DNA of 64,000 nucleotides. Origin: Candidatus Latescibacterota bacterium (lineage in GTDB: Bacteria > Latescibacterota > UBA2968 > UBA8231). The position numbers were made by a program, and so were the translations under genes. The notes under the pieces are model-generated. The model searched no databases and was not told the origin of the DNA. It saw only the letters and a program-made list of their open reading frames with translations. The stretch's first letter is position 1. Each line of letters starts with the position of its first letter. The DNA lies in the NCBI GenBank assembly GCA_965200315.1, contig OZ241362.1, forward strand, positions 4,064,001 to 4,128,000. Reading direction: 5' to 3'. Of this stretch, positions 10,157 through 64,000 are shown one piece after another.

Positions 10157-10172
10157 CACCTCACGGGCACTT

Positions 10173-10768: not shown

Positions 10769-10972
10769 TCAGTTCGTCTTCGACTCGGCATCCCCGCACG
10801 AACCGGGAGCCTGACCGCACTCGCACATAGGCTCGCCCAACGCATCGCGCATAGTGCCCAGCCCGCCGCACGAGCCTTGGAGGCGGCGATTGCTGAAGAT
10901 CACGCCGACAGCCATGGCGGCCATGATTAGCCCAAAAACAGCGAAAGTGGCGATAAGCATGCTCGCAGTCAT
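10769..10972 (-). CDS. nqrM: Na+-NQR maturation factor NqrM (DUF539)
   Basis: MAVGVIF...GSCGG plus Cys-rich tail; follows nqrF. Confidence 0.88.
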   Translation of the reverse strand: MTASMLIATFAVFGLIMAAMAVGVIFSNRRLQGSCGGLGTMRDALGEPMCECGQAPGSCGDAESKTN

Positions 10973-10989
10973 CTTGTATTCCTCCCGAC

Positions 10990-12228: not shown

Positions 12229-12244
12229 AAGACGCTTTTCCCTT

Positions 12245-12856: not shown

Positions 12857-12862
12857 GTTCGG

Positions 12863-14278: not shown

Positions 14279-14292
14279 TTTGTCTATCTCTC

Positions 14293-15510: not shown

Positions 15511-15519
15511 TGAATGCGT

Positions 15520-16866
15520 CTATCCTTCTCTTTCAATTCTGTCCAAATTTCGTCGCAGCATGGGGCCATATTCGTACTTGCCGGGACACGCAAAAGTACA
15601 AAGCCCTAAGTCTTCCTCGTCTAGCTCCAGACAGCCGAGAGCTTGGGCGCGGTCCGTATCCTCGACGATAATGGCGCGAAGGAGAAAAGTCGCGAGGATG
15701 TCCAGCGGCATCACCTGCTCGTACGAGCCGATTGGCACCATGGCCCGGTCGCTGCCCTCGATCGAAGTAGTAAAATCGAAAAGTCGGTTGGGCAGCAGCT
15801 TGGAGGCAAAGACATTCTTGATGGAAAACTTATCGACGCCCGGTTTCTGCCACCCTAAGAACTCGCGCTCGCGGCCCTCGGCGAGCACCGAAACCTGCGC
15901 GTGGTAGCGGCCGAGAAAGTCCAAGGGGCCGGACGCTACCCGACCCGCTAGCACCGACCCGGCAATGATCCGATTCTCGCCCGGCTTGAGCTGGCCCGCC
16001 GTCAGCTCGCTCAGGCAGGCCCCTTGGCGGGTGCGCACCAAGCGCGGCTGTTCCACTTGGGGACCGCCCAAGGCCACGATGCGCTCGGTCCACAACGAGC
16101 CGGTGGCAAAGAGCTTACCGCAGGCCACCACGTCTTGGTAGCCAATGTACCAGACCGTTTTGGCTGCGCCGACCGGATCGAGAAAGTGGATGTGGGTGCC
16201 GGGCAATCCCGCGGGATGCGGGCCGGCAAATTCGACGACTTGGGCACCGTTGGCCGCGATGCTCGCATCGGGTGCCGTGCACACATAGACCGGCCCATCG
16301 GTGAGCTTACCCAGTATGGTCAAACCCCGAGCAAAGTCGTCTTCGTACTCGCGGAGCACGACTTGGGGATCGGCCGCGAGGGGATTGGTGTCCATCGCGG
16401 TGACGAAAATCGAGTGCGGCGCGCTGTCGGGCACGGGCACTTTGCTGTAGGGCCGCGTGCGCAGCGTGGTCCAAAGGCCAGACGCCACCAAGGTTTTGCG
16501 CACCTGCTCGCGGCTTAGCTGATCGGGTGCCGTGCGCGCGTACTGCTCAAAGCGCTCTTCCTCGTCTCCTGCGACCTCAATGACGACCGATAGCAAAGCG
16601 CGTTTGGTCCCGCGGTGGACACCGATCACTTTGCCGCTCGCCGGCGACGTATAGCGCACGCCCGGGAGACTCTTGTTTTCGAAGAGCAACTGCCCTTTTT
16701 TAACCGAATCGCCCTCGTTTACGGCCATCGTCGGCCGCAGGTCGATAGCGTCCGGTCCCAAGACGGCCACCTGCCCAATCGCTGGGCCGTCTTCGATCAC
16801 TTGCTCCGGCGCACCAGCAATGGGCAGGTCTAATCCTTTTTTTATTACAATTTTGCTACTGGCCAT
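15520..16866 (-). CDS. nqrA: Na+-NQR A
   Basis: [37 protein letters not shown]. Confidence 0.97.
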
Positions 16867-17180
16867 TATGAGTGCCGCGCAATCCCCTTTCAAAAGTTAA
16901 ATATCACTAAACTGGCCGGTTTAAGCCAGCCAGTCCCATCCGTCAAAAAAACAGGATATTAATTCGTCGTTAAAGAGTCTTTATGTCTCATAATCGGCCA
17001 GATATTCAAAGCGCGGGCGCGCCTTCCAGCCCGTTTCCCTCCGCAAACAGCCTAAAAATAAAAGCCAAGAAGCGCGATGGAGCAAGCCATTTGCGCGACA
17101 GATGCGCTCCTACCGAACTTGCCAAACTGGGTGAAACCTCGGATTTTAGACGCTCATCCACCAAACTGATCAGAGGATTT

Positions 17181-42478: not shown

Positions 42479-43261
42479 ATGAAGCTGAAGGACAGAGTGG
42501 CCCTCATCACCGGTGGCAGCAGCGGCATTGGCCGGGCTGCGGCCGTGGCCATGGCCCGCGAAGGAGCCAACATCGCGCTGACGGCCCGCCGCTCCGAGCG
42601 CTGCGAGGAAGCTGTCGCCGAAATCGAAGGACTAGGCGGCCAAGCGCTGGCTCTGCCCGGCGATGTGGCTAACGCCGAGCACGTCGCCGGGCTGGTGGCC
42701 GCCACCGTTGAGCGTTGGGGCCGCCTCGACATCGCGGTGCCCAACGCCGGCATCAACGGAGTTTTCGCCCCCATCGAGGACATCACGCCCGAGGAATGGG
42801 ACCAGACCCACAACATCAACGTGCGCGGCACCTTCCTCACCGTTAAATACGCCATCCCCCACCTGCGCGCGGCCGGCCGCGGCAGCATAGTCATCGTCTC
42901 CTCGGTCAACGGCAACCGCATCTTCTCCAACTTTGGCTTCACCTCGTATTCCTGCTCCAAGGCCGCTCAAGTTACCTTCGCCAAAATGGCCGCGGTCGAA
43001 CTGGCGCAGTGGGACATCCGCATCAACGTCGTCTGCCCTGGCGCCACCCGAACCAGCATCGGCGAGAACACTTTTCCGCGCAACATCGCCCAGATTCGCA
43101 TCCCCCGCGAGTTCCCCCAAGGCATGATCCCCCTACAACAACGCGCCGCCAGTGCCGAGGAGGTGGCCAACGCCATCGTCTTTTTGGCGTCGGACGAGGC
43201 TAGCTACATCACGGGAACTGAGATGTACGTAGATGGGGCGCTGTCGCTGTTTCAAGGGTGA
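42479..43261 (+). CDS. SDR oxidoreductase
   Basis: TGGSSGIG, NAG, YSCSK. Confidence 0.95.
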   Translation: MKLKDRVALITGGSSGIGRAAAVAMAREGANIALTARRSERCEEAVAEIEGLGGQALALPGDVANAEHVAGLVAATVERWGRLDIAVPNAGINGVFAPIEDITPEEWDQTHNINVRGTFLTVKYAIPHLRAAGRGSIVIVSSVNGNRIFSNFGFTSYSCSKAAQVTFAKMAAVELAQWDIRINVVCPGATRTSIGENTFPRNIAQIRIPREFPQGMIPLQQRAASAEEVANAIVFLASDEASYITGTEMYVDGALSLFQG

Positions 43262-43307
43262 GGGCGGCCACTGCACAGAACCGGAACACAACTTAGGGAT
43301 CGACTAA

Positions 43308-44215
43308 ATGTGCAACACAAACGTTGGCATCTTGGCGACCCTACTCGTGCTATCAAGTGCCTGTCTGGCCGCAGCAAGAGTCGCGCCCCGCACAGACGAG
43401 AGCCCAGCTTCGCACCCTCCGCTTTGCAGTAGAGCCGCAATCACGCCGCCTTGGATTTCCCAACCGCTGGAACAGAATTTACCAAGACGCGGTTTTGTCC
43501 TTCAACGAAGAAACGGTCCGCGCACAGAGTCGCCGCGTCGAAAGCCTTTGCTGCCAGCGACCATTTTTATGACTTCAACGACGAGGCTGCGCACATCTTG
43601 GACGACTGGTTCACAGTCGCCGACCAAGATGGGATACGCCAGCATCACTTGGTAGAAGTTAAACGCGTTCTGTCGGGATTAACGCCCGAACGGGCGGCCA
43701 GCTATGCCCAGTTGAGGGCCTATAACCGCGTCTTCTTCCTCATCTTTCGCGGTATCGTGAACCGCGATCAGGGCTTTATGGACGCCCTCGGTCGGGACCC
43801 GGACATCGTCGACATCCTGTTGCAAGCTACTGGCTACGATTTTCTCTATCCAGACAATGAGTACCTGCTGGAAAACGCCATCCGAGAGCTCGGGAGGTTG
43901 GCCACAGTAGATGCTCTCGAAGACGCCGTCATCGCCGCTCTGCTCTCTATACTCCCCAAGCACGAGCGTCTCAGTGGGCCCTTCATGATTGTGGTAGAAA
44001 ACCTAGAAAATCGGATCAATTGCGAGACTTGGAACATCTGTCGGGACGTGCTGGAAAGTGAAATCATCGCCCGGGCCTTCCCTCATACATACGTACCGTT
44101 TCGACGATGGGGCCGTAGTGTTTGAAACGTCCCTCGGCTTGGAGACGGTGCAACCCTTGTACTACGCGGCTAAGGAGGTCAAGGCGCAGTTTCACCGATT
44201 GTTGGAAACATACAA
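43308..44215 (+). pseudogene. M9 microbial collagenase, frameshifted and 3'-truncated
   Basis: Signal-peptide-like start. HTYRFDDG...LYYAAKEVKAQFHR resembles the clostridial collagenase TYTFDDG...LYWASKEVK.QF.R segment. Frameshifts near 43500 and 44090; no HExxH. Confidence 0.7.
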
Positions 44216-44574
44216 ATATGCATATTTTAGCGTCCGTTGCGAAATGTCTTGGGGCCGCTTCTGCGGTCTGGCGGTTCCATGCGATTCGCCCGGCCTCTGC
44301 GGTGTGTTTGCTTTTGACGGGGTTGCAAGTGCCCTCGCCGTGAGATGTTCGTCTTGAGCGCGTCAGCCCTGGCGTCATTATAGCCCACTCCAGCAGATCG
44401 CGTCTAGTGGGCTGCGCCGACCAGCGGTGATTGCTCCGTATGATCTTGGCCCGGTCCTCGCTGCGGCTGCGCGGCCACTCCCCCCGCTTGCCTGTCCCGC
44501 AGGAGACGCCGGGACCTCTGCTGAGGACGGAAGAGGCCGCCCGTGTAGCGGGAGTGCCACCAAAAACAATCAGA

Positions 44575-44690
44575 TTGCTATAACGGCCACATGCCCCAAC
44601 CGACGGCAGCCCGTTTCAGGGCTTCGGAGGTGCCGCCCTTCTCGCCTTCCACATACGGTGTCTCCTGCTCCATCCGCACACCATACTCAG
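44575..44690 (-). pseudogene. Rad52/Rad22 (Sak-like) single-strand annealing protein remnant
   Basis: DGAGDT / VEGEKGGTSEALKRAAVGWG / GRY recovered across two 1-nt frameshifts. Confidence 0.6.
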
Positions 44691-44788
44691 CCGTCTGCGG
44701 TGCGTATCTCGACGCGGCAGATGATGCGGCTAAAAATGCGAAAACCGGCAGTCTTGCCGTCGGTGCCCAATATCCGTTTTCTTTTTTT

Positions 44789-45337
44789 ATGATCTTAACT
44801 ATCCTCGCGTCCCTGCTGTTGACGGGCTGCCGCGCCGATCCCCCCCAAGCCCTCGATTTGGCTGGCAATCCAGTTGATCCCTTTGTCAACCGCGCTCCCG
44901 TTGCGGTTTTGCTCTTCGTCCAGACCGATTGCCCCATCTCCAACCGCTACGCCCCGACCATAGCGCGTCTCCACGCCCGCTTCGAGCCGCAAGGCGTTGC
45001 ATTCTACTTGGTGTATCCCGACCGCCGCGAAGATGTGGACGCCATCCGCCGCCACGGTCGGGAATACGGCTTACCGGGCCAAGCCCTACGGGACGTGCAG
45101 CACACCCTCGTCAAAAGAGTCGGCGCGACCGCAACCCCAGAAGCCGTGGTGTTAGGTGAGCGCGGCAACATCGTCTATCGGGGCCGCATTGACGACCGCT
45201 ACACGGCCTTGGACCAAGTGCGCCCGCAGCCGACCCGCAGCGACCTCGCAAACGCCTTGGAGGCCGCCCTCGCTGGTCGCCCTCCAGACCCGAGCGCCAC
45301 CGAGGCGATTGGCTGCTTTATCGCCGATCTGCAATGA
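44789..45337 (+). CDS. redoxin (AhpC/TSA-like thioredoxin fold) lipoprotein
   Basis: Lipobox LTGC, QTDCPISNRY, ATPEAVV, YRGRIDD, C-terminal AIGC. Confidence 0.85.
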   Translation: MILTILASLLLTGCRADPPQALDLAGNPVDPFVNRAPVAVLLFVQTDCPISNRYAPTIARLHARFEPQGVAFYLVYPDRREDVDAIRRHGREYGLPGQALRDVQHTLVKRVGATATPEAVVLGERGNIVYRGRIDDRYTALDQVRPQPTRSDLANALEAALAGRPPDPSATEAIGCFIADLQ

Positions 45338-47001
45338 CTCGCTGTTGGATATTCTTGGTCGCGGCCTGCTTTGGATGCAGTGGAGGAGAAGTTCCGACCT
45401 TCAACCGCGACATTGCGCCAATCGTCTTTCACAACTGCGCCCCCTGCCACCGGCCCGCCGGCCCGGCCCCTTTTGACTTGCTCAGCTATGCGGATGTGAG
45501 GGCGCGCGCCGAACAAATCGCCTTTGTTACGGAGACCCGCTACATGCCGCCGTGGAAGCCCAAGCGCGGCTACGGTAGCTTTGCCGGCGAGCGCGGATTG
45601 AGCGCGGCACAGGTCGCCGCGATCCGCCGCTGGGTTGACCACGGCAAACAGGAGGGCCATTCCGCCGACCGGCCTCCGTTGCCCCAGTGGAGGGGCGAGT
45701 GGGAGCTGGGCCAGCCCGATTTAATCGCCTCCATGACATCGCCCTACACCCTGCGGGCTGACGGCCCCGATGTCTTCCGCAACTTCGCCATCCCGCTGCC
45801 CGTTGATTCAACGCGCTACATCAAGGCTCTAGAGTTCAGGCCGGGCAACGCGCGCATCGTCCACCACGCCACCATGATGATCGACCGCAGCGGCGCGGCG
45901 CGGCAGCGCGATGGACGCGACGGGGCCCCAGGCTTTGAGGGCATGAGCTTTGGCGAGGCCGAGGACGCCGATGGGCACTTTCTCGGCTGGACCCAAGGCA
46001 AGACCCCATACCCCGGCAACGACAGCTTGGCTTGGCGGCTCAATCCGGGCACGGACTTGCTGCTGCAGTTGCATCTGTTGCCGACCGGCAAAGAGGAATC
46101 CATTGAGGCCCGCGTCGGCCTGTTCTTTGCCGATGCGCCGCCTAAAAGACGCCCGGCCATGCTGCGCTTGGGTCGCAAGGACCTAGACATACCGGCTGGG
46201 GCGAGCGACTATTGGATCCGCGATACGTATCTGCTGCCTGTGGATGTCGAAATCCTGACCATCTACCCACACGCGCATTACCTCGGCCGGGAAATTCGGG
46301 CGTACGCCGAGTTGCCCAACCAAGAGCGGGAGTGGCTTATATGGATTGAGGACTGGGATTTTAGCTGGCAGGACGACTACCGATTCGCCTCGCCCGTTTT
46401 CTTGCCGGCTGGCTCGACGCTGGTCATGGAATACGCGTACGACAATTCCGCGCAAAACCCGCGCAACCCCCACGACCCACCCGTGCGGGTGCGCTATGGG
46501 CTGCACTCGACCGACGAGATGGGCGATCTGACGCTACAGATTTTGCCGCGCCGCCCCGAGGACTTAGCGCGACTCCGCCGCGACTTTTACCGCAAGTGGC
46601 TGGGGCAGGAAATCGACGGGTACAAGAAGCTGCTCGAAGCCGACCTTCGAGACTGGGACACCCACCACACCTTGGCCATGTTCTACATGCGCTCCGGCCA
46701 GCGTCCGTTGGCGCTGGAGCACTTTGAGTTGGCACTGGAATACAACCCGGACTACCCGGAGGCTCATGTGAACTTTGGGATTGCCCTAGCCCAAGGCCGC
46801 CAATGGGAGCGGGCCGTCGCCCATTTTGAACGGGCCTTGCAGCGCAGCCCCGATTTTGCCGCGGCCCATTTCAACCTAGGATTGGTATTGGAGATGATGG
46901 GCCGCTCGGCCGAGGCCAAACCCCACTTCGACGCCGTCATCCGCCAGCGGCCCGACGTGGCTGCGGCCATCCAACAGCGCTTGGCCAAGCTGCGTCGCTA
47001 G
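45334..47001 (+). CDS. cytochrome c - copper type II (PHM/DBH-like) monooxygenase - TPR lipoprotein
   Basis: Lipobox-like CFGC, CAPCH heme motif, HH / LQLH / HAH / DEM copper ligands, C-terminal TPRs. ATGA-coupled to the redoxin. Confidence 0.78.
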   Translation: MTRCWIFLVAACFGCSGGEVPTFNRDIAPIVFHNCAPCHRPAGPAPFDLLSYADVRARAEQIAFVTETRYMPPWKPKRGYGSFAGERGLSAAQVAAIRRWVDHGKQEGHSADRPPLPQWRGEWELGQPDLIASMTSPYTLRADGPDVFRNFAIPLPVDSTRYIKALEFRPGNARIVHHATMMIDRSGAARQRDGRDGAPGFEGMSFGEAEDADGHFLGWTQGKTPYPGNDSLAWRLNPGTDLLLQLHLLPTGKEESIEARVGLFFADAPPKRRPAMLRLGRKDLDIPAGASDYWIRDTYLLPVDVEILTIYPHAHYLGREIRAYAELPNQEREWLIWIEDWDFSWQDDYRFASPVFLPAGSTLVMEYAYDNSAQNPRNPHDPPVRVRYGLHSTDEMGDLTLQILPRRPEDLARLRRDFYRKWLGQEIDGYKKLLEADLRDWDTHHTLAMFYMRSGQRPLALEHFELALEYNPDYPEAHVNFGIALAQGRQWERAVAHFERALQRSPDFAAAHFNLGLVLEMMGRSAEAKPHFDAVIRQRPDVAAAIQQRLAKLRR

Positions 47002-47861
47002 CCCCCGTCTTTTCCCAACGTCGTTGCGAATCCCAAGACGAGCTGCCGCCCGGCCGGAAAATTGCGCCCGTTGAGCGAGACGCGCACGGCCGCCTCAACC
47101 GTTGTGCGCTGGCCGATGGCGTAGAGCAGGGCTGGCGTCAGGTAGGTGATGCGTTTGATCTCGGCCTCAATACCGCCAAAGACGATCGCCGGACGGCTGC
47201 GGAGCACCTCGCATTTGCCCAGCAGCACGAGCTGGCGCACGAGCCGGTAGCCTATCTCGGCGTTGAGGAACCACTCGTCGCCGGGGTCGCGGTCGATCTG
47301 TTCGTTGCGGGTGCGGACGCGATAGCCGAGGTCGATGTTGCCGTACAGGGGCCGCGGCCAAAAGGAGCGCCCGACCTGCCCGACGAAGTCGAAATCCCAC
47401 TGCCCCTCGCCCACCGGAATCAGCCCATCTTCGTTTTTGAACTCTCCGGTTGGCACCTTAACGCCGGCCTTGAGCGCGAGGACCAAGGGCTGGGCCAAGA
47501 GGCGCAATTTGGCCAAGGCGCGGATGTCGCTCAGGCCGGTGTCCGTGCGGGGTTCGGCAAACGCGACGTTGGCAAAAGACTGGTCGAAATAGGGAACCTG
47601 CAAGCCAAGGTCTAGGCGGTCGGTGACGCCGTATAGGCCCTCGAAAAAGACGGCCCGCGATTCGTATTGCCCGTCAAAGTCGTAGCGGGCGCGGGTGCCG
47701 GGCGCACCAAAGCGACCCTTGCCGACGTACCACTCTTGGGTGCGCTGCTGGAAATAGGTGAGCTTGCTCCAGACTTGGCCTCGCGGCAAAGTCCAAGCGC
47801 CGGCACCCACATCGGCTGCCGCACCTAGGAGTATCAAGCCGACCAACAGGTATTTGACCAT
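46998..47861 (-). CDS. putative outer-membrane beta-barrel (phenol MetA-degradation/transporter-like family)
   Basis: Signal peptide (AGAW), YGVTDRLDL, GLSDI, VKVPTG, alternating beta strands. Confidence 0.7.
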   Translation of the reverse strand: MVKYLLVGLILLGAAADVGAGAWTLPRGQVWSKLTYFQQRTQEWYVGKGRFGAPGTRARYDFDGQYESRAVFFEGLYGVTDRLDLGLQVPYFDQSFANVAFAEPRTDTGLSDIRALAKLRLLAQPLVLALKAGVKVPTGEFKNEDGLIPVGEGQWDFDFVGQVGRSFWPRPLYGNIDLGYRVRTRNEQIDRDPGDEWFLNAEIGYRLVRQLVLLGKCEVLRSRPAIVFGGIEAEIKRITYLTPALLYAIGQRTTVEAAVRVSLNGRNFPAGRQLVLGFATTLGKDGG

Positions 47862-48052
47862 AGCCGCATTCCTTTCGCGTGTTAGGTTCGCGGTTTCCTC
47901 AGAAGCGGTCTAAATGGTTGGTGCCCTCTGCCGAGGGGCGCGGTAAAGCCCGATTGCGCGGTTTACCGGAAGGCCGCGAATAGCTATTTTCAAGTGGAGT
48001 GCAACGTTCCTTTTCACGTCGCTAGACGACAATACCTTGGGAGAGATTTTCT

Positions 48053-49105
48053 ATGAATACCGTTCCTTTTGAAAAGCTAGGGCCGGGGCAATCGGGGCGG
48101 CTGGCCTATCAGGTGATGGGCCAAGACGGGCCGATTTTCAACCCGCAGAACATTCGCTATCTGTCGCCAGAGGCTGCCGGTATGCAGGTTGGCTCTACGG
48201 CAGGGACCGCGGGCTTACAGACGGGCTTGGCCGGGGCTAACCTCGTGTGTTCCGTGCTGAATCTAGCCGTTTCTGCGTACATCGCACGTCGAGTGAATGC
48301 CTTACACAAAAAGATGGACGTGATGCAAGAAACCCTGGATCGCATTGAAAGTAAGGTTGATTACATCGTACAGAAGGTGGACCGAATAGACATACAAGTG
48401 GCCGAAAACAACTTGCGACACGCTTTAGAATATACACTTCAACAGGCAGTATATGGCGAAGAGGTGGACTTGACCATTCTCGCAGGGCTATGCGGTGATT
48501 TCCGTAAGTTTAAAGCCTCATTGCCCGCGGAATGGCTCTTACTCAACTTTGGTCTTTACCTTTCTAGCGACATCCGGGACCGGCTCCGACAAATCTACGA
48601 CCTCGCTTATGGGCTTCGGAAAGTGGTTGCTCAGCGGTACAATGCTGCTGTTGATGGTGATCCAGAACGCATTGTCATCGTGGATCCGCCTAGGGATTAC
48701 CTTTGTTGTCTTGGTCCCGGGCCGCATAGCGGTCTTGCTAACGGTACCAAAATGGCAATGCATCTTGTTACTTCCTCTCGAGTCCCTCGTAAGCGATCCG
48801 AAGAGATACAAGAGTTTCTTACGTCCGATGGATTGAGCTTTCTTTATTCTCAGCGTTATCTTCCGGCGCAGCCTTTTATGATATTCGGGAATGTAGAAGA
48901 AGATATAGCAGAAGGACTGTACGACCTCTGTCGTGCTTGGCTCTATCGCTCCGACGCGGGACTGCTCTGGCGGACGTGGTCGGAGTTGGGTGCAATGAAG
49001 GACGGCTATCATTCGTGGTGCTGGCCCCAATTGCAAGAAGCTGATCTATGCGGCTTCGACCAGATCGACGTTACCTGCGACCTCGCGCTCATTGAAAATG
49101 CCTGA
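48053..49105 (+). CDS. hypothetical protein, hydrophobic helix plus coiled coil, lower GC
   Basis: 350-aa ORF with GGGAGA RBS; no recognisable family motif. Confidence 0.7.
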   Translation: MNTVPFEKLGPGQSGRLAYQVMGQDGPIFNPQNIRYLSPEAAGMQVGSTAGTAGLQTGLAGANLVCSVLNLAVSAYIARRVNALHKKMDVMQETLDRIESKVDYIVQKVDRIDIQVAENNLRHALEYTLQQAVYGEEVDLTILAGLCGDFRKFKASLPAEWLLLNFGLYLSSDIRDRLRQIYDLAYGLRKVVAQRYNAAVDGDPERIVIVDPPRDYLCCLGPGPHSGLANGTKMAMHLVTSSRVPRKRSEEIQEFLTSDGLSFLYSQRYLPAQPFMIFGNVEEDIAEGLYDLCRAWLYRSDAGLLWRTWSELGAMKDGYHSWCWPQLQEADLCGFDQIDVTCDLALIENA

Positions 49106-49117
49106 GCGCGTCAATAC

Positions 49118-50401
49118 GTGCATATCCTCACTTTAGGCATCAACCACCGCACCGCGCCGGTGGAAATCCGCGAGCGGCTGGCCTTCCCCGAAAGCGACCA
49201 GCCCTCGGCCCTAGCCCGGCTCGTCGGCGACTATGGGCTGCACGAAGCGGCCATTCTCTCCACCTGCAACCGGTCCGAGCTGTACTTAGCGGCCGATGGC
49301 GACAGCGGATTGGCCCAAGTGCGCCGCTTTCTCGCCGAATGCCAAGGCGTAGATGTCGCAACGCTCGAATCCCACTTCTACCAGCTCAACGACTCAGACG
49401 CGGCCGTTCATCTTTTTCGCGTGGCCAGCGGCATTGACTCCCTCGTCGTCGGCGAGTCCCAGATCCTCGGGCAGGTGCGCCGCGCATTGGAATTGGCCCA
49501 GCAAAACGGCTCGGCGCGCCTGTTGCTCAACGAGCTTTTCCAACGCTCACTGCGCGTGGGCAAGCGCGCGCGCGCCGAAACGGATATTGGCCGCGGCCGG
49601 CTGTCGATTGGCACGGCTGCGGTCGAGCTGGCCGGCCAAGTCTTTGAAAATCTGACGGGCTGCGGCGTGCTCTTGGTCGGTGCTGGCGAGATGGGTGCGC
49701 TCACGGCCCAGTACTTGATTGACTCCGGCGTCGAGCGGCTGTTGGTAAGCAGCCGCACCTTTGCCCGCTCCCAGTCGCTGGCCAGCCAGTTGGGCGGCGA
49801 GGCCGTGCCCTTTGAGGAACTAGCCGCTCAGCTTGCCACTGTTGACATCGTCATCTCGGCGACTGCGGCCGCGGATTACGTCATCCGCCCCGCTGATTTG
49901 CGCCGGGCTATGGAGCAACGCCGAGGACGCCCGCTGTTCCTCATCGACATTGCCGTGCCGCGCGACATTGACCCGGCCGTACGCGACATCGACAACGTAT
50001 TCCTGTTCGACATGGACAATCTCGAACAAGTGGTTGCTGCCAACCGCCAAGAGCGCGAGGGAGAGATCCGCTGCGTACAAGCCATTATTGACCACGAGCT
50101 AAAGGAGTTTTTGCACTGGTTCAATGCCTTGGGCACTGGTCCGTTAATCCGCTCTTTGCGCGCGCGCGCCGCTCGTCTCCAAGAACAAGAGCTCGCGCGC
50201 TGGGCCGCCCAACTCGGTCCGCTCTCCGCGGCTGAGCGTCAGCTCGTCGAGGGCATCTTGCGCGGTTACGCCAACAAGCTCCTGCACGATCCGCTCGTGC
50301 AGATCCGCGAATTCGCCAACGACGACGAAGGCTATGTCCGCCTCGATACGGTGCGTCGCCTCTTCCGGCTCGACGACGAGGCCGGGGAGAAAGAATCGTG
50401 A
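49118..50401 (+). CDS. hemA: glutamyl-tRNA reductase
   Basis: GINHRTAPVEIRE, STCNR, GESQILGQ, GAGEMG, DIAVPRD. Confidence 0.97.
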   Translation: MHILTLGINHRTAPVEIRERLAFPESDQPSALARLVGDYGLHEAAILSTCNRSELYLAADGDSGLAQVRRFLAECQGVDVATLESHFYQLNDSDAAVHLFRVASGIDSLVVGESQILGQVRRALELAQQNGSARLLLNELFQRSLRVGKRARAETDIGRGRLSIGTAAVELAGQVFENLTGCGVLLVGAGEMGALTAQYLIDSGVERLLVSSRTFARSQSLASQLGGEAVPFEELAAQLATVDIVISATAAADYVIRPADLRRAMEQRRGRPLFLIDIAVPRDIDPAVRDIDNVFLFDMDNLEQVVAANRQEREGEIRCVQAIIDHELKEFLHWFNALGTGPLIRSLRARAARLQEQELARWAAQLGPLSAAERQLVEGILRGYANKLLHDPLVQIREFANDDEGYVRLDTVRRLFRLDDEAGEKES

Positions 50402-51210
50402 CGACGTTCTGCATTGTCTCTCTCGCCATCGCCTTGGCGTTCTACTTGGCTGCCGCGCTGCTGTTTCAAGGGCACTTCCTCTGGCACAAAAGCGGCTGGG
50501 ACGCGCTGGGGCGCAAGAGCCTAAAGTTGGGTCTGGCCGTACACGCGATCAGCATAGTGCTGCACTTCGCGCTTTCCGGCCAAGCCCTCTTCGCCAATAT
50601 GTTGGTGGTCATCGCCTCGCTGGTCATGGCCTTGGTGGTTGCGGGCCTGCTCGGCGAGCGCTATGTGCGCATTCGCCACCTCGGCCTGCTGACCGCGCCC
50701 CTCGCCTTTCTCGGCCTGCTCTATCCGCTGCTGATGCCCATCCGCTTTGAGGAGGCCGAGTCGATCCTCGTGGAATATCCCTTCCTCGGCATCCACGTGG
50801 TCCTAACGCTGCTCGGGCACGTGGGTTTTGCCTTGGCGTTCTGCTCGGCGGTCGGCTACCTCGTCCAACACCAAGCCCTAAAAAAGGGCCGGCTCAACAG
50901 CTATCTGCCCGCACTCGACACGGCTGCCGCGGCGACCTTTCGCTTTGCTGGCGGCGGCTTTTCGCTCTTTACCTTGGGTTTGGGCATGGGCGCGATTTGG
51001 TTCTTTGGCGCGCCGGGCGAACACCTCGCGGGCGGAGATACCAAAATCTGGCTGGCCCTGCCGACGTGGTTCGTTTTTGGCATCTATCTCTATTTGCGCG
51101 GCATTGGCCGGCGGCACGGCCGCCGTCTCAAGTGGTTGGTGATTGCGGGGTTTGTGCTGGGGCTGATCAACCTGCTGTGGGTGCGCCACGATTTCGTCAA
51201 TTTTGTGTAG
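50398..51210 (+). CDS. cytochrome c assembly (CcsA/HemX-like) membrane protein
   Basis: Multi-TM, conserved His (GIHV), LPALD, D.K motif; coupled to hemA. Confidence 0.8.
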   Translation: MTTFCIVSLAIALAFYLAAALLFQGHFLWHKSGWDALGRKSLKLGLAVHAISIVLHFALSGQALFANMLVVIASLVMALVVAGLLGERYVRIRHLGLLTAPLAFLGLLYPLLMPIRFEEAESILVEYPFLGIHVVLTLLGHVGFALAFCSAVGYLVQHQALKKGRLNSYLPALDTAAAATFRFAGGGFSLFTLGLGMGAIWFFGAPGEHLAGGDTKIWLALPTWFVFGIYLYLRGIGRRHGRRLKWLVIAGFVLGLINLLWVRHDFVNFV

Positions 51211-57100: not shown

Positions 57101-58165
57101 TTACTCGATCCGCACTTCCCGCCCCTGCTCTGCCGACTCGTATATCCCGTCGATCATCTTCTGCACCATCAGCCCGTGCTCGCCGGGCGCTAGGGTTTCC
57201 GCGTCGTAGAGTACGTGATCGACGAAGTTGCGCATCTTCTGGCCGAAGGCGTCGGCTGCCGGGCCGCTGGGCAGCCAGTCGGGCCGGGCGTTGACCATGT
57301 AGTCGTTGGCGTCGTGGAAAAAACCCGGCGGATCCCAGCTAGCCCCGCCCTTCTCGCCCATCAGCGTGAAGTTCCCCTCACCCTTCTCGATATGGGCGGC
57401 GAAGCTGGTCTCGATACTAAGCATCGCGCCGTTGGCAAAGCGGATATGCCCCACCGCTAGGTCTTCGACCGTATAGGTCTTGTAGTCCCAGTTGGGCCAG
57501 TGCGAGACCACGTTGGACGGCTTGTCGCCGATGTACGTATAGGTGCTGCCGCTAGCGGCCACCGGTTTGGGCGCACCCATTGCATAGTGCGTGGTCTCTA
57601 TCATGTGGACGCCGATGTCAATCAGCGGTCCGCCGCCTTGTAGGTCCTTGCGGCCAAAGACTCCCCAGTTGGGAATGCCGCGCCGTCGCAGGGCCTGCAC
57701 CCGGGCGTACAGGACTGTGCCCAGTTCGCCATCGTCAACGAGCTTTTTGATAAACTGCGTCTTTGGCTCATAGCGGTTCTGGAAGCCAATAATCAGCCTT
57801 TTGTCGTTTTCCGCCGCGGCGTCGAGCATCTTTTGGCCCTCGCGTACGTTCATGGCCAAAGGCTTCTCGACGAGGACGTGGGCCCCCGCTTCGAGCGCGG
57901 CTATGGAGCAGGGAGCGTGTAGGCCGTTGGGCGTACAGACGCTTACCGCGTCGGGTGCGACCTGCCGGAGCATCTCCTCGTAGTCGGCGTAGGCCGCGGG
58001 GATTTCGTATTCCTCGCAGTTTTTTTGCGCTCTTTCGATTACCACGTCCGCCGCGGCCACCATCTCCACATCGTCCATGTCTTGGTAATAGCGCATGTGC
58101 GCCCCAGCGATCCCACCAGCGCCGATCAGGGCGACGCGCAGCTTGTCTTGCTTGCTCTTAGTCAT
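57101..58165 (-). CDS. Gfo/Idh/MocA oxidoreductase
   Basis: IGAGGIA, CTPN, VEKP, GGGPLIDIGVH. Confidence 0.95.
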   Translation of the reverse strand: MTKSKQDKLRVALIGAGGIAGAHMRYYQDMDDVEMVAAADVVIERAQKNCEEYEIPAAYADYEEMLRQVAPDAVSVCTPNGLHAPCSIAALEAGAHVLVEKPLAMNVREGQKMLDAAAENDKRLIIGFQNRYEPKTQFIKKLVDDGELGTVLYARVQALRRRGIPNWGVFGRKDLQGGGPLIDIGVHMIETTHYAMGAPKPVAASGSTYTYIGDKPSNVVSHWPNWDYKTYTVEDLAVGHIRFANGAMLSIETSFAAHIEKGEGNFTLMGEKGGASWDPPGFFHDANDYMVNARPDWLPSGPAADAFGQKMRNFVDHVLYDAETLAPGEHGLMVQKMIDGIYESAEQGREVRIE

Positions 58166-58198
58166 GGCTCTCCGCCTGTTTGAGATTGTGGCAAGGCA

Positions 58199-58227
58199 TA
58201 AAAAAACCGGCCCGCAGACCGGTTTTT
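58199..58227 (-). terminator. intrinsic terminator after the DUF6807 gene
   Basis: Minus strand AAAAACCGG-tctgcggg-CCGGTTTTTTT. Confidence 0.7.
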
Positions 58228-58245
58228 CCTCCTACAGATACCATC

Positions 58246-59148
58246 CTAGCCCGCTTGGAACTGCTCGATAAGCCGGCGCACGTCTGGATGTCCGTCAACG
58301 CTACGGTCGGGGTGGATGATCAGCCGGTAGCGGAAGACGGCCTTGTCGCCGCCGGGGATGGTCAGGCTCGCGTCTAGACTTGCGTCGCCCTTAAAATCGT
58401 GTACCCCAAAGGGATTGGCGGTAAACAGCCCGTAGCCTCGCACGTGCCAGTAGGTCGGGTGGCGGGGATTGTCGCGGTGATCGACGACGGTGTGCCCCCA
58501 CTCCGCGCCATCGGCGACCGGCCCGGAATAATCCACCCAAGCCGCCTGCTGGCCCCAAGTGGCCTCCTCGCCTTGGCCATTTTCAAAGACTTGGCCGGCC
58601 GAGTTTTCAATCCGCCCCGCGCCCTTGGCATCCATAGAGGTCGGCACCCGGATCGCAAACAGCCCGCCCTCTTTGGTGTCGCCGAAGGTCACGTCTCCGT
58701 AGCGGGCGCGGAACTCGCTGCGTTGGTCCAAGATGCGCAACGAACCTTCGGCGCGGATGGCGATGGTGCGCCGCTCCTCTAACAGCTTCTCACCCTCCGG
58801 TCCGAACCAATCGACGATCCCGTCGATCTGGGCTGCGCCGTCGGCTGCGCCGACTACTGGCTCGCCTCGCTGGAGCATGGCCCCGTGGCCCGTGCCTTCG
58901 TCCCAGAGGTTGTGGCCGTTGACGAGGCCGTGGGCCGTGTAGATGCCGCGATGGTGGTAGTGGTCCTGCGTTTCGCCCGCGACATCTTCCATCGGATAGG
59001 CGCGCGTGAGCCCGGTGCCGTTGGGCGTCAGCACTGGATAGAGGTACGGTCGGCACACGTAGTGGCCGTAGCGGTATTCGGTAAAAAGCTGGCCGTCGAT
59101 AGTGACGACGGCCTTGCAGTCTGCGGGAATTAGCTCGATAGCGATCAT
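58246..59148 (-). CDS. DUF6807 ('PmoA'-named) hypothetical protein
   Basis: PYLYPV, DHYHHRG, FGDTKEG, WHVRGYGLF..NPFG. Confidence 0.8.
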   Translation of the reverse strand: MIAIELIPADCKAVVTIDGQLFTEYRYGHYVCRPYLYPVLTPNGTGLTRAYPMEDVAGETQDHYHHRGIYTAHGLVNGHNLWDEGTGHGAMLQRGEPVVGAADGAAQIDGIVDWFGPEGEKLLEERRTIAIRAEGSLRILDQRSEFRARYGDVTFGDTKEGGLFAIRVPTSMDAKGAGRIENSAGQVFENGQGEEATWGQQAAWVDYSGPVADGAEWGHTVVDHRDNPRHPTYWHVRGYGLFTANPFGVHDFKGDASLDASLTIPGGDKAVFRYRLIIHPDRSVDGHPDVRRLIEQFQAG

Positions 59149-59161
59149 TGCTTCCTTTCCG

Positions 59162-60502
59162 TTATGCGGCTCGGCCACAGCAGCGCTTGTACTTCTTGCC
59201 GCTGCCACAGGAGCACGGGTCGTTGCGCCCGGGGGACTTTTGGTGCAGGGCCGCCTTGACTGCGTCCCGTTTGCGAGCCCATTCCATCACGCCGGTAGCC
59301 GGTCGGCCATGCCGCAGCTCGTTGGCCATAAAGCGCATGTAGGGATCGGCGTGCCCAAAGTACATCTTGTACCCCTTGCACAGGTAGTTGAGGCCGTCTT
59401 CGCCGCGTGGGGTTTTGGTAAAGCGGTGCTTGGGGCAGCCGCCGTTGCAGGCGAAGCGGTATTCGCATTCAATGCAGTACTGGGGCAGCGTGTCCTTTTT
59501 GTCCTGCCCGAACTTGGTCTGCTGAGGGCTGGCGACCATGTCGCGGATGCTCTCCGTGTGGACGTTGCCGAGGCGATAATCCGAATAGACAAAGTGGTCG
59601 CAAGAATACAGGTCACCGTTGTGCTCGATGATCAGGGCCTTGCCGCAGGTCTCGGCGAAGATGCACAGGCTCGCATCTTGGCCCAGCCACGAGCCGAGCG
59701 TCACGTCAAAGAGCTGTACGAAGACTTGGCCGACGTCGTTGCGTACCCATTCGTCAAAGATCGCGCAGAGGAACTTGCCGTACTGCCCTGGGCCTACCGA
59801 CCATTTGGAGACCGGCGCACGGCCCTCGTATTCGGGATCGACTAACTCCAGTCCGTCCTCGTCTGGCTGGTGTGCGATGCGCTCGACGATGGGAATAAAC
59901 TGCATAAACCCCGAGCCCTCTTCGCGCAGGAAGCGGTAGATTTCGAGCGGATGATCGGCGTTGTGGTTTTGCAGCACGGTCAGGGTATTGAATTCCACCG
60001 CGTGCTTTTTGAGCATTTGCAGGCCGGTGTACACTCGGTCGTAGGTCGGCTTCTGGCCCTTGTCAACCCGATAGCGGTCGTGGTAGGGTCGCGGCCCGTC
60101 GATCGACAGCCCGATTAGGAATTTGTTTTCCGCGAGGAACTCGCCCCACTCGTCGTCGAGGAGGATGCCGTTGGTCTGGAAGGCGTTGGTGACGAGCTTG
60201 CCGTCGGCGTATTGTTGCTGTAGCTCGACTGCGCGGCGAAAGAAGTCCACGCCCATCAGGGTCGGCTCGCCGCCCTGCCAGGCAAAGTCCACCTGCGGCA
60301 CGTCTTGGGCCTCAATGTACTGCTTGACGTATAGTTCGAGCGTCTCGTCGGACATGCGCCAGTTTTTGCGCGCGTCCGGGTAGAGCTTCTCCTTTTCGAG
60401 GTAGAAGCAGTACTTGCAGTCGATGTTGCAGACCGAGCCCGAGGGCTTGGCCATTATGTGGCTAGACGCCGGAGCAGGGTTGAGTGTGGTCGCAGTTTCC
60501 AT
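59162..60502 (-). CDS. anaerobic sulfatase maturase (radical SAM/SPASM) with C-terminal SEC-C motif
   Basis: AKPSGSVCNIDCKYCFY, WQGGEP, SCDHFV, CNGGCPK, GRNDPCSCGSGKKYKRCC. Confidence 0.95.
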   Translation of the reverse strand: METATTLNPAPASSHIMAKPSGSVCNIDCKYCFYLEKEKLYPDARKNWRMSDETLELYVKQYIEAQDVPQVDFAWQGGEPTLMGVDFFRRAVELQQQYADGKLVTNAFQTNGILLDDEWGEFLAENKFLIGLSIDGPRPYHDRYRVDKGQKPTYDRVYTGLQMLKKHAVEFNTLTVLQNHNADHPLEIYRFLREEGSGFMQFIPIVERIAHQPDEDGLELVDPEYEGRAPVSKWSVGPGQYGKFLCAIFDEWVRNDVGQVFVQLFDVTLGSWLGQDASLCIFAETCGKALIIEHNGDLYSCDHFVYSDYRLGNVHTESIRDMVASPQQTKFGQDKKDTLPQYCIECEYRFACNGGCPKHRFTKTPRGEDGLNYLCKGYKMYFGHADPYMRFMANELRHGRPATGVMEWARKRDAVKAALHQKSPGRNDPCSCGSGKKYKRCCGRAA

Positions 60503-61257: not shown

Positions 61258-61824
61258 TTAGGCGAGGTCGCCGCTCCAGAGCATTTGGATGAAGGTGGCT
61301 GCGGGCAGGATGTCGATACCGTCGTCCGTGCGTCGGTCGAGCAACCGCACGGGACGGGCGTTGTCGTACATTCGGGGCAGGTAGCCGTGGTTGAGGAGGC
61401 GAGTGAGGTCAAAGTCTGCGCCGAGTTCCTGCGCCGTCAGCCCATGCAGTTGGTAGCGCACGGCCCGTCCGCCGAGCAGGTTGGCTCCTCCGCGCCGCAC
61501 CTTGCGGGCACTGGAGCCGCAAAGGGCGAAACTCAACCCTCGGTTTTCGAGCAGCCAATGTACCTCGTCGAGCAGCGCAGGCACCTTCTGAATCTCATCA
61601 ATGACGATCTGTTGATTGGGATCAAACCCTGTCGCCTCGATTTCTTGACGCAAAAACTCTGGGTTGGCCACGTACCGCCTGAACTCGTCTGCCTTTAGGA
61701 GATCAATCCACAGGCCGTCGGCGTACCGGTGTTTTAGCAGGGTGCTTTTGCCCGCCTGTCGCGGCGCCCAGAGGAAAAACGTCTCGGTGCCGGGCGCGGG
61801 TAGGTCCAGATTTCGTTTGTACAT
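61258..61824 (-). pseudogene. AAA_14-DUF4143 ATPase, internally deleted
   Basis: Walker A APRQAGKS, IDEIQK, GSS, L.GR, then a direct jump to the terminal GIDILP...F...LW segment. Only 188 aa. Confidence 0.8.
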
Positions 61825-61840
61825 GGACTTAAAATTAACG

Positions 61841-61871
61841 TGTAAATTTGAAGTAGTGGTTCAAAATTACA
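61841..61871. promoter_or_regulatory. palindromic operator candidate
   Basis: TGTAAATTTGAA-N7-TTCAAAATTACA (one mismatch). Confidence 0.6.
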
Positions 61872-61907
61872 GCAAGAACTTCCCTCAGATGCCTTCAGGA
61901 AGTCGCC

Positions 61908-62110
61908 TCAAACGGGTTGCGGCTCGTAGCGCTCGACCTCAATCTCATCCTCGCACGCTTGCGCCTGAGCGACGGCGTAGGCCGCTTGCAGCCGTATCCA
62001 AGTCTCCGTTGTAGAGCCGCTTTTGCGAGGCGGATGGCCATGTCGGCCGAAATGCGAGCGCGACAATTCACCAGATTCGCGAGGGCTTGGCGACTGACGC
62101 CGAGTGTCAA
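61908..62110 (-). pseudogene. higA: HigA-family antitoxin remnant
   Basis: LGVSRQAL..LVN....ISADMAIRLAKA / GSTTETWIRLQAAY split by a frameshift; N-terminus and higB absent. Confidence 0.8.
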
Positions 62111-62218
62111 TTGACACTTGTCAAGAACGAGAACAAATGATCGAAAGCCTGCGGCGGCGTCCTTTCTGAGCGCTGGTTATCAATAGAGAGGAGTGAACAC
62201 TAGGGAGCGAGCCAGACA

Positions 62219-62252
62219 TTGATCTTGACCTGTTTATGGTCTATATTTGGTC
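62219..62252 (+). promoter_or_regulatory. TA promoter/operator
   Basis: TTGATC, 17 bp spacer, TATATT, overlapped by GACC-N7-GGTC and a second GGTC 11 bp on. Confidence 0.55.
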
Positions 62253-62268
62253 CGAAAAGGAGATGCCC

Positions 62269-62544
62269 ATGAAACTGTCCAGTCAGATTAAGCCGATCAG
62301 TTACCTCAAGGCCCACGCCGCTGAGATCGTGCGCACACTTGGAGATCAACCGGAACCCTTGATCATCACCCAGAATGGCGAAGCCAAGGCGGTCATGCAG
62401 GATATCGACAGCTACGAGCAGATGCAGGAAACGGTTGCGCTGCTCAAGATTCTCGCGTTGGGTAGCCGTCAGATCGAAGCAGATCAGGTGCAATCCGCTG
62501 CCGATGTCGTCGCACAGCTTCGGGAGCGGCGACGGGATCGCTGA
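62269..62544 (+). CDS. Phd/YefM antitoxin
   Basis: IKPISYLK, PLIITQNGEAKAV. Confidence 0.92.
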   Translation: MKLSSQIKPISYLKAHAAEIVRTLGDQPEPLIITQNGEAKAVMQDIDSYEQMQETVALLKILALGSRQIEADQVQSAADVVAQLRERRRDR

Positions 62545-62870
62545 TGGCTTTCTTGGTTCAGTTGACCGATGACGCGACGCACGACTTGGAGGAAATTTGC
62601 GATTACATCGATCGGCATGATGGGCCGGGTCGGGCGGATTGTGTGCTGGAGCAGATTGAGAAGGCTTTCAGCAGCCTCTCCGAGTACCCCGAGCGCGGGA
62701 ACTACCCGGCGGAACTGCTGGACATTGGGATTCGGGAATATCGCGAGATTTTCTCTAGGCCCTACCGCATCATCTATCGGGTGATGGGAAATAACGTCTA
62801 TGTGCTCTTGATCGCCGATGGGCGGAGGGATATGCAGACGTTGCTACAGCGGCACTTGCTGCGGGCATAG
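62544..62870 (+). CDS. RelE/ParE toxin
   Basis: A..DLEEI..YI, YPERG, PYRIIY, DGRRD; TGATG-coupled to the antitoxin. Confidence 0.92.
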   Translation: MAFLVQLTDDATHDLEEICDYIDRHDGPGRADCVLEQIEKAFSSLSEYPERGNYPAELLDIGIREYREIFSRPYRIIYRVMGNNVYVLLIADGRRDMQTLLQRHLLRA

Positions 62871-63375
62871 TCGTATCAACAGTAATGTCTTGTGCCATGA
62901 TCTGATTCTCCTCTTTGAACTTTCGTTGGATATATTCCAGTAAGTCCTTCAGGAACCAGCGTACCCGTTCGGCTTCGCATTCCCTCCAACACTGCTCAAT
63001 CCAACTTTCGAGGGAACTCCTAGTGTCGTTCTTTCGATAGGACACCGTCCAACAGAAGTCCTTTAATTCGGTTGGTAAGGTCTTCGGATCGCTGCCGTTG
63101 CCGCTCAAATATAGTATCCTCGCGGTTCTGCTCCTCTTTACCCTGCTTTGCAGGTACTCCAGATATGCCTTGACCTGATCTTTCTGCTCCGCCGCCCATG
63201 GCTTGTTCTCGATCCCGATCCAGCGGTTGCCGGGCATCTCCAGAACGATATCGATCTTTCGCTCTTCGTGCGTCGCATATTTAGTATGGACCTTCGTTGC
63301 ACTTGTGAAGGTTCGAGGAGACCGGCGAATATGCACGACATATTGGTTTCCCATACGCGGAAGTAATCGAAAAGT
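62871..63375 (-). pseudogene. PD-(D/E)XK nuclease (PDDEXK_4-like), fragmented
   Basis: FDYFRVWETNMSCIFAGLLEP in one frame, then KIDIV...IGIENK..A.EQ..Q...Y in another; both ends lost. Confidence 0.7.
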
Positions 63376-63508
63376 TGGCGAAAATGCTCCCTGTCGAATA
63401 CACGATGATACCACCTTTGTCCAGCCACTTGCGGACCGGCACAGAATCCTCGTTTGGTGGATCGGCGAGAAACGAACCGAGCTTGTTAGCATCTACGATG
63501 ATGCACAT
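63376..63508 (-). pseudogene. 5' fragment of a PIN-like partner gene of the ATPase
   Basis: MCIIVDAN start 9 bp after the ATPase stop; truncated after ~44 codons by fusion to the nuclease fragment. Confidence 0.5.
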
Positions 63509-63517
63509 GGGTCCAGT

Positions 63518-64000
63518 TCAATCCGCGAAACCAATCAGTCGGTCGGTTTCCTTGGAGAAAAAGTCCCGGTATCCTGCTGGCGCGTCCTGTAGGTTGCCGT
63601 GTTCGTCCAAGGTCATGTTGTGAATCGCAACGGCGTTTCCTTTCGGCGTCGGCTCGAAGTACAGGATGGACACGTCCTCATGCTTCAAAATCCGTTTTCT
63701 GACGGAGATGCGAACGCGATCGACAATGTAGTCGCTGTGGGTCTCGATTAAGAATCGGTTACCGCGTTTTTTGAACGACTCAACTAGCAGACTGGCTAGT
63801 TCTGCCTGCCCCCGAGGGTGAAGGTGGACCTCTGGTTGCTGAAGCAAAAACGTCCGCTCCGAAGGGCGGCCTCGGCCTGCGGCCAGCACGTCGACCAAAA
63901 TTGGCAGGCTCTGGCTGACACCGTAGCCCACGTCCATGATGTTCGCCTGCGGTCCTGATCGAACTTTTACCTGCAACTGGAACGGGTCGCTCATCTGTTT
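63518..64000 (-). CDS. AAA_21/ABC-type defence-associated ATPase with DUF3696-like tail (partial)
   Basis: DVGYGVSQSLP signature, QQPEVHLHP Walker B/D-loop, IETHS H-loop; runs off the window end. Confidence 0.85.
   Translation of the reverse strand, partial: KQMSDPFQLQVKVRSGPQANIMDVGYGVSQSLPILVDVLAAGRGRPSERTFLLQQPEVHLHPRGQAELASLLVESFKKRGNRFLIETHSDYIVDRVRISVRKRILKHEDVSILYFEPTPKGNAVAIHNMTLDEHGNLQDAPAGYRDFFSKETDRLIGFAD

Follow-up and report, generated by a model that had tools for sequence, protein, structure and literature searches.

A coupled bacterial gene pair encoding a predicted heme c/dicopper protein of the PHM/DBH fold and its thioredoxin-fold partner

A two-gene locus in a Latescibacterota genome

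The 64,000-nucleotide (nt) window analysed here, positions 4,064,001 to 4,128,000 of the forward strand of contig OZ241362.1 (assembly GCA_965200315.1, Candidatus Latescibacterota bacterium), carries on its plus strand two adjacent open reading frames (ORFs), ORF A and ORF B, that are the subject of this report. ORF A (44789–45337, 182 amino acids (aa)) encodes a lipobox-bearing, predicted periplasmic redoxin of the thioredoxin fold, with an invariant cysteine, C48, in the CxxS motif TDCPIS and a distal cysteine, C176, in the motif IGC. ORF B (45334–47001, 555 aa) encodes a lipoprotein-type precursor whose parts are, in order, a heme c domain, a putative dicopper core like that of peptidylglycine alpha-hydroxylating monooxygenase (PHM) and dopamine beta-hydroxylase (DBH), and tetratricopeptide repeats (TPRs). 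A preliminary description, made from the sequence alone, had presented the two ORFs as translationally coupled and had quoted TDCP (C48) and AIGC (C176) from ORF A, and CAPCH, IVHHA, LQLH, YPHAH and DEM, followed by TPRs, from ORF B; the stop codon of ORF A and the start codon of ORF B indeed share the tetranucleotide ATGA (45334–45337, plus strand), all of the motifs are there, those of ORF B in the order given, and this observation of a two-gene locus is confirmed. Overlaps of −1 to −4 nt between redoxin and enzyme genes are seen again in related loci, for example L009, L011, L015, L024 and L079 among the 80 loci analysed here, which were kept from 601 stretches confirmed in a species-representative genome collection and come from Acidobacteriota, Gemmatimonadota, Planctomycetota, Latescibacterota, Sumerlaeia and Aminicenantes metagenome-assembled genomes (MAGs).

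The mechanical ORF that contains ORF A begins at 44591; translation from the ATG chosen here, at 44789, begins with MILTILASLLLTGC, a signal peptide with a canonical lipobox, and the alignment of ORF A relatives starts from this ATG onward. Lipoprotein-type signals had been noted on both ORFs, and on reading the translations we find the lipobox cysteine at LLTG-C14 in ORF A and at LVAA-C12 or CFG-C15 in ORF B, both of which fit the lipobox pattern. The signal cysteine of ORF B has an aligned Cys in 21 of 26 relatives (alignment read by eye), and the Cys at the lipobox position of ORF A is not conserved in the redoxin family. The ORF A/B pair is probably membrane-anchored through a lipid anchor.

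Cofactor-ligand motifs of ORF B

The heme c domain of ORF B (about residues 22–105; 45397–45648, plus strand) contains the invariant residues C35-A-P-C38-H39, P46-F47 and M71-P-P-W74 and is modelled as helices 23–34, 52–68 and 91–102. It is followed by an N-terminal jelly-roll (about residues 125–265; 45706–46128, plus strand; model strands 130–265) that is matched to PHM and DBH by Foldseek and holds H177 and H178 (IVHHA) and H247 (LQLH), ligands of the type that bind the histidine-only copper, CuH, of PHM, and by a C-terminal jelly-roll (about residues 270–408; 46141–46557, plus strand; model strands 275–405) that has a weak match to Pfam Cu2_monoox_C and holds H313 and H315 (YPHAH) and M396 (DEM), ligands of the type that bind the His-His-Met copper, CuM. 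The remainder of the protein (residues 410–555; 46561–47001 with the stop codon, plus strand) is a long linker helix and three to four TPRs, modelled as helices 410–554. These repeats, also named in the preliminary description, are evident both from Pfam (TPR_2 at E 8e-19 in three stretches at about 430–550, with matches to many other TPR families) and from the helix pairs at 441–554 of the model.

All ten proposed cofactor residues, C35, C38 and H39 of CAPCH, M71 of MPPW, H177, H178, H247, H313, H315 and M396, are found without exception in the 26 database relatives that are 47–92% identical to ORF B, as are P46-F47 and the whole of M71-P-P-W74. The same ten are kept in 78 of the 79 proteins from the related loci (H178 in 79/79), the exception, L073, being a badly called ORF. 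The six PHM-type copper ligands stand in the expected order, and the invariance of these residues across relatives indicates that the motifs are not chance occurrences. The invariant CxxCH and MPPW methionine support the built-in heme c domain that had been proposed. In ORF B the HH pair is followed after 69 residues by the third histidine, and HxH after 81 by the methionine. Clustering of the His/Met residues had been named beforehand as a test, and the ligands fit it in their order, spacing and invariance.

Among Pfam families only the TPRs are significant in ORF B, and its match to a cytochrome c family is weak (E 0.081). When 37 family members were scanned singly, weak matches to Cytochrome_CBB3 were found in 35 (best E 2.7e-4) and weak matches to Cu2_monoox_C in 34 (best E 2.7e-6).

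The predicted fold of ORF B and its relation to PHM and DBH

An AlphaFold2 model of ORF B built on the alignment of 26 relatives has a mean predicted local distance difference test value (pLDDT) of 89.2 and a predicted template modelling score of 0.84, and shows a helical domain (23–102), two beta-sandwich domains (130–405) and a TPR arm (410–554). The presence of the PHM/DBH double jelly-roll had been set beforehand as a test of the proposed relationship, and it is present: when the model was compared with the PDB by Foldseek, the first 31 ranks listed were all PHM, rat PHM being among the top matches, except for human DBH (4zel_B, rank 8, E 2e-10), and TPR proteins came after them. The PHM matches have E values of 1.3e-11 to 3.4e-8 and template modelling (TM) scores of 0.57–0.64 on the target, over 286–318 aligned columns with 14–17% identity. 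A phmmer search of the PDB with the whole of ORF B returned TPR proteins only.

How closely does the protein resemble the animal enzymes? Like PHM and DBH, in which a solvent cleft separates the two copper sites, it has HH...H in its first domain; HxH...M follows in its second domain, the order being the same and the spacing similar, and it is also exported from the cytoplasm. The HxH of ORF B would correspond to H242/H244 of PHM, and the PHM methionine M314 is named in titles of the PDB matches. Unlike them it is bacterial, is only 15–16% identical over the aligned core and lies below the Pfam cut-offs; a heme c domain occupies its N terminus in the place of the DOMON domain of DBH, and it further has a C-terminal TPR arm and a lipoprotein-type signal; and it is paired with a dedicated cysteine-pair redoxin. 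In PHM, according to PMC6123673, the CuH ligands are H107, H108 and H172 and the two coppers are about 11 Å apart.

ORF A is a CxxS redoxin

ORF A matches Pfam AhpC-TSA at E 5.5e-9 (36.5 bits, above the cut-off of 26). A profile of 31 ORF A relatives matched the PDB entries 2ywi (6e-20), 3u5r (7e-17) and 2cvb/2ywo (6e-16) over almost the full length, with the CP and C-terminal IGC motifs aligned, and the model of ORF A (pLDDT 92.3) has the same 2ywi, 3u5r and 2cvb family as its top Foldseek matches, with E of about 1e-12 and TM of about 0.7. ORF A thus belongs to the thioredoxin-like family of 2ywi, 2cvb and 3u5r, to which no function is assigned in the depositors' titles and which corresponds to the CDD family 'PRX_like1'. 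The proteins of this family, from Geobacillus kaustophilus (2ywi), Thermus thermophilus (2cvb/2ywo) and Sinorhizobium meliloti (3u5r), are like ORF A in fold and in their CP and (I/V)GC cysteines; they differ in that identity is 22–25% and in that ORF A has an export/lipoprotein signal and is coupled or fused to a heme-copper enzyme. Entry 2ywo is the deposited reduced form of the Thermus protein, beside 2cvb, and its existence agrees with a cysteine pair that is redox-active.

The Foldseek matches of the ORF A model that rank next below its own family are the extracytoplasmic thiol-disulfide oxidoreductases ResA, DsbE/DsbF-type and StoA, and the Bcp peroxiredoxins, of which the peroxiredoxins Bcp1 and Bcp4 rank far below the thioredoxin-like matches. 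ResA, CcmG, TlpA and DsbE share the exported thioredoxin fold and are the next-best structural and profile matches, but they have CxxC where ORF A has C48-P-I-S and a distal Cys; in 48 aligned redoxin sequences the column after CPxx contains no second cysteine. C48 and C176, 128 residues apart, are invariant in 48/48 of these sequences, R145 is likewise invariant, and H105 and H151 are common and not invariant (38/48 and 37/48, respectively). To judge by its sequence, then, ORF A is a CxxS redoxin (CPIS) with a distal second cysteine.

Genetic linkage of the redoxin and the enzyme

Conservation of the redoxin beside homologues of ORF B had also been set beforehand as a test of the preliminary description. 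In six-frame translations a gene homologous to ORF A (E 3e-53 to 7e-30) adjoins the enzyme gene in 48 of the 80 loci, always on the enzyme's strand; it is directly upstream in 39, directly downstream in 6 and adjacent by coordinates in 3 (L025, L028 and L033). The linked loci cover five phyla, Acidobacteriota, Gemmatimonadota, Planctomycetota, Latescibacterota and Sumerlaeota, and in three proteins (P0229, P0251 and L051:7988-10396) the redoxin is fused N-terminally to the enzyme.

The neighbourhood was surveyed more widely by clustering every six-frame ORF in the 80 loci that reaches 100 aa and scanning representatives against Pfam, and no neighbour except the redoxin is consistently conserved in them. 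Large genes for TonB-dependent-receptor-like outer-membrane proteins (CarboxypepD_reg/OMP_b-brl_4; examples are L043 1212–5144 and L056 294–4097) lie within 6 kb in 31/80 loci and were dropped from consideration, their positions and strands being variable; such proteins are very abundant in Acidobacteria. FG-GAP/ASPIC-UnbV proteins (12/80, again with varying positions and strands), trehalases (9/80) and sulfatases (5/80) were judged to be outside the system.

Predicted redoxin–enzyme complex

Prediction of a complex between ORF A and ORF B gave a score of 0.85 (0.85, 0.86 and 0.85 in three runs), the best of three controls scoring 0.00; 116 of 157 solved complexes attain the mark used for this score, as do 2 of 215 mismatched pairs, counts that apply only roughly here since the run used custom alignments and had heme riding along. 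The runs share at least 92% of their contacts and partner pLDDT values are at least 91. The complex model supports, and does not show, binding of the redoxin to the enzyme; it favours the dedicated redoxin partner that had been proposed, with both of its cysteines on the heme/CuH side.

On the redoxin the predicted interface consists of D47-C48-P49, N52–T57, Y93, T139–Q147 (including R145) and C176-F177. On the enzyme it consists of P46-F47 directly after the heme motif, helix R58–V65 leading to the putative axial ligand M71, the loop P250-T251-G252-K253 that lies three residues past copper ligand H247, and Y316, which adjoins H313/H315. These contacts would place both invariant redoxin cysteines at the junction of the heme and CuH domains. 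Several interface positions are more conserved in redoxin-linked than in unlinked enzymes (Q61, 44/47 versus 14/31; G144, 47/47 versus 24/31; G252, 47/47 versus 25/31; K/R253, 47/47 versus 19/31), a comparison that is confounded by phylogeny.

A proposed mechanism

We consider the two genes, taken as a whole, to be best explained, with a confidence somewhat above even, as encoding a two-subunit exported monooxygenase of the PHM/DBH superfamily that contains heme c and two coppers, has the redoxin as its dedicated cysteine-pair partner and carries a TPR arm. In this monooxygenase ORF B would bind copper at a three-histidine site (H177/H178/H247) and at a His-His-Met site (H313/H315/M396) in its two jelly-rolls, and would carry heme c, covalently bound at C35xxC38H39 with M71 as axial ligand, ahead of the copper core and the TPR arm after it. 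ORF A would dock where the heme domain meets the post-H247 loop and present Cys48/Cys176 as a redox-active pair. The two electrons that are ascorbate-derived in PHM would here come from inside the complex, and we infer that ascorbate is unlikely as a reductant in a bacterial periplasm. Their source would be the dithiol of the redoxin or electron carriers of the periplasm, and they would pass to the heme and on to the histidine-only copper; O2 would be activated at the His-His-Met copper and a C–H bond of the substrate hydroxylated, and the TPR arm may dock a protein partner or the substrate. Because a dithiol gives exactly the two electrons of a PHM-type cycle and thiols readily reduce Cu(II), electrons could enter via the heme, directly at copper, or by both routes.

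A heme domain that gives single electrons to a copper monooxygenase has counterparts in the cytochrome domain of cellobiose dehydrogenase, which serves lytic polysaccharide monooxygenases, and in cytochrome-linked DOMON proteins. The likeness is one of concept, an analogy for which we claim no homology: those cases differ from ORF B in fold, in heme type and in having the heme on a separate protein.

The preliminary description had put forward a thiol-to-heme-to-copper relay in place of ascorbate and recruitment of a protein or peptide substrate by the TPRs, and this interpretation is partly supported by the present analysis. The analysis shows the modelled fold, the ligand motifs with their invariance, the linkage to and fusion with the redoxin, and the predicted binding; inferred are the presence of metals and heme, the path of the electrons, the reaction with O2, the nature of any substrate and what the TPRs do. 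The boldest reading is that the family is the first recognised bacterial branch of PHM/DBH, an ascorbate-independent holoenzyme in which redoxin and heme c feed the copper pair and an envelope protein or peptide is offered by the TPR arm for C–H hydroxylation, with thousands of variants in Acidobacteriota, Gemmatimonadota, Planctomycetota and allied phyla; we regard this as possible, with the odds clearly against it. The chemistry and the fold are known ones, and what is new is the domain combination, the partner and the kingdom.

A number of observations weigh against a redoxin-fed monooxygenase. The Cu2_monoox_C match of ORF B itself (E 0.061, 13.2 bits) is below the cut-off of 23, the N-terminal Cu2_monoox family is unlisted at E ≤ 1 in ORF B, in the 37 members and in seven fusion candidates, and a profile of residues 20–412 searched against the PDB reached no PHM chain at E ≤ 10, its best match being the PccH cytochrome 4rlr (E 0.5). 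Because the sequence profile finds no PHM and the N-terminal family never appears, we place the kinship of ORF B with PHM at the superfamily or fold level, where only comparison of the predicted fold bridges the gap. The linkage is also incomplete: 32 of the 80 loci have no redoxin within their flanks, five of them with less than 1.3 kb upstream, and a FastTree phylogeny of the catalytic regions requires 9 changes of the linked state, of which at least 5 are forced by well-supported branches. Since a single Terriglobia clade accounts for 31 of the 48 linked loci, the independent observations of linkage are modest in number. No candidate substrate gene is conserved near the enzyme in the 80 loci, and no DsbD/CcdA-type reductant for the redoxin is found within the window. 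Finally, the passage of electrons from a two-electron dithiol to a one-electron heme is unusual chemistry.

Alternative explanations

The alternative that survives best is a PHM-like heme-copper monooxygenase whose heme is fed by ordinary periplasmic cytochromes, with the redoxin as a maturation or protection factor: either a ResA/CcmG/TlpA-like reductase that holds the CxxCH cysteines reduced for heme attachment, or a peroxiredoxin-like scavenger of peroxide from uncoupled turnover. The next structural neighbours of the redoxin, several of which are cytochrome c maturation factors and others Bcp peroxiredoxins, agree with such a role, as does the AhpC-TSA match above cut-off, and the loss of linkage in 32 of 80 loci fits an accessory protein. 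However, ORF A has CPIS and lacks the CxxC of ResA/CcmG/TlpA, and its predicted binding to the folded enzyme via a conserved surface, together with the fusions, suggests a stable subunit, not a transient factor. We consider this explanation unlikely.

A second alternative keeps the same anatomy and predicted interface and makes the protein an oxidase, in which electrons from the redoxin dithiol would pass through heme and copper to O2 with formation of disulfides; it would serve in the periplasm as a sulfhydryl oxidase or would re-oxidise a thiol carrier, and its TPR arm would dock client proteins. By established redox chemistry such a flow of electrons should be thermodynamically downhill, and the finding that no substrate gene is conserved nearby is in keeping with it. 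Against it, the full PHM-type ligand set is strictly kept, including the Met of the O2-activating copper, and in PHM, according to PMC9064607, O2 reduction is fully coupled to substrate hydroxylation; we judge an oxidase to be quite improbable. The weakest alternative, that the redoxin is a Sco-like copper chaperone that loads the enzyme via C48, C176 and a histidine, would suit its thioredoxin fold, a T-x-C-P motif that resembles the Sco motif, the frequent H105 and H151, and its predicted docking beside the loop after copper ligand H247, but it is very improbable, since the redoxin has a single Cys in its motif and lacks the second one of CxxxC, its candidate histidines are not invariant, ORF A has no Pfam SCO1-SenC match at E ≤ 1, and there is no Sco chain among the PDB profile matches of the redoxin or among its Foldseek matches listed to rank 49.

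Size, range and significance of the family

When residues 1–420 of ORF B (without the TPRs) were searched against a library clustered at 50% identity, 14,713 representatives were matched at E ≤ 1e-3, 8,863 at E ≤ 1e-10 and 2,863 at E ≤ 1e-30. The best 150 library matches are 549–1117 aa long, so C-terminal extensions vary in length, and the number of TPRs varies widely among the relatives. Since the ESM Atlas contains clusters, automatically named after Cu2_monoox_C, of only about 410–450 aa, TPR-less forms probably exist. The relatives had been expected to lie in databases as uncharacterised proteins; the nearest ones, from Gemmatimonadetes MAGs and 89–93% identical, carry in their source just the name "tetratricopeptide repeat protein". 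A literature search found no paper on the ORF B family or on the solved relatives of the redoxin, and TTHA0593 appeared only in a crystallography-methods paper; within the literature searched, the heme c/PHM/TPR family is unstudied.

Two relatives have unusual architectures. Locus L051 (6001–10396) has tandem paralogues, an unfused heme c/PHM/TPR gene followed 160 nt on by the redoxin-fused gene, and this shows that single genomes can hold several copies. The 1064-aa relative P0123 apparently has two heme c/PHM-like modules in tandem, with EF-hand calcium motifs replacing the TPRs; one module was matched at 577–973, and hints of cytochrome and Cu2_monoox_C lie at 35–81 and 317–409.

In animals the textbook enzymes PHM and DBH produce amidated peptide hormones and noradrenaline, and electron delivery to and between their two distant coppers is still debated. 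A bacterial relative with built-in electron entry, through heme c and a docked cysteine-pair protein, would amount to a natural experiment on copper electron transfer and may serve as a tractable expression system. C–H hydroxylation of an envelope protein or peptide by ORF B, if true, would be a kind of post-translational modification for which the bacterial periplasm has so far given no described case. The gene pair occurs widely among soil bacteria. As the 2,863 clusters at the most stringent threshold belong to abundant soil and sediment phyla and are labelled just "TPR protein", assigning a function would annotate thousands of genes and could bring to light unknown oxidative chemistry of the cell envelope, either modifying or degradative.

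Other features of the window

Upstream of ORF A, a 224-aa ORF (43451–44125, plus strand) matches only the peptidase M9 N-terminal domain (M9_N-like, E 1.3e-6), and the gap of about 660 nt that separates it from ORF A (44126–44788) has neither an Rfam match nor a convincing promoter. No Rfam match at E ≤ 1 was found in 43000–49200, and in the upstream gap and the flanks promoter-like and terminator-like sites are no more numerous than shuffled sequences predict. Downstream, ORF B is convergent with a gene whose 287-aa product is an outer-membrane barrel in the family 'MetA-pathway of phenol degradation' (46998–47861, minus strand; Pfam E 1.6e-12), and the 3′ ends of the two genes overlap by 4 nt. 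The next gene, a 350-aa ORF (48053–49105, plus strand), matches no Pfam family at E ≤ 1e-3 and lacks homologues in the 80 loci, and local G+C content (GC) drops there to about 0.575. The M9_N-like ORF, the barrel gene and the 350-aa ORF were rejected as parts of the system, each being found beside 0/80 homologues of ORF B; the barrel is probably unrelated to it.

At 49118–51210 (plus strand) hemA (glutamyl-tRNA reductase) overlaps by 4 nt a gene whose 270-aa membrane product belongs to the cytochrome c assembly (CcsA-like) family, a pairing that resembles hemA-hemX. This pair is only 2 kb from the heme c enzyme gene, a closeness that may be coincidence. The rest of the window is ordinary chromosome, with genes for ATP synthase, Na+-NQR, biotin synthesis and pyruvate dehydrogenase besides hemA; F-type ATP synthase genes lie back to back with a complete operon for the Na+-translocating NADH:quinone reductase (nqrA-F-like) at 3675–16893 (minus strand).

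Near the right end of the window there is an unusual trio, a radical SAM/SPASM protein with a SEC-C zinc motif at its C-terminal end, next to a protein of the DUF6807 family and a GFO/IDH/MocA oxidoreductase (59162–60502 with 57101–59208, both minus strand). Beyond it, ORFs for AAA_14, PD-(D/E)XK (PDDEXK_4) and AAA_21/AbiEii-type ATPase proteins occupy 61258–63994 (minus strand), where GC falls to 0.537, and these may be a small defence or mobile island that runs off the end of the window.

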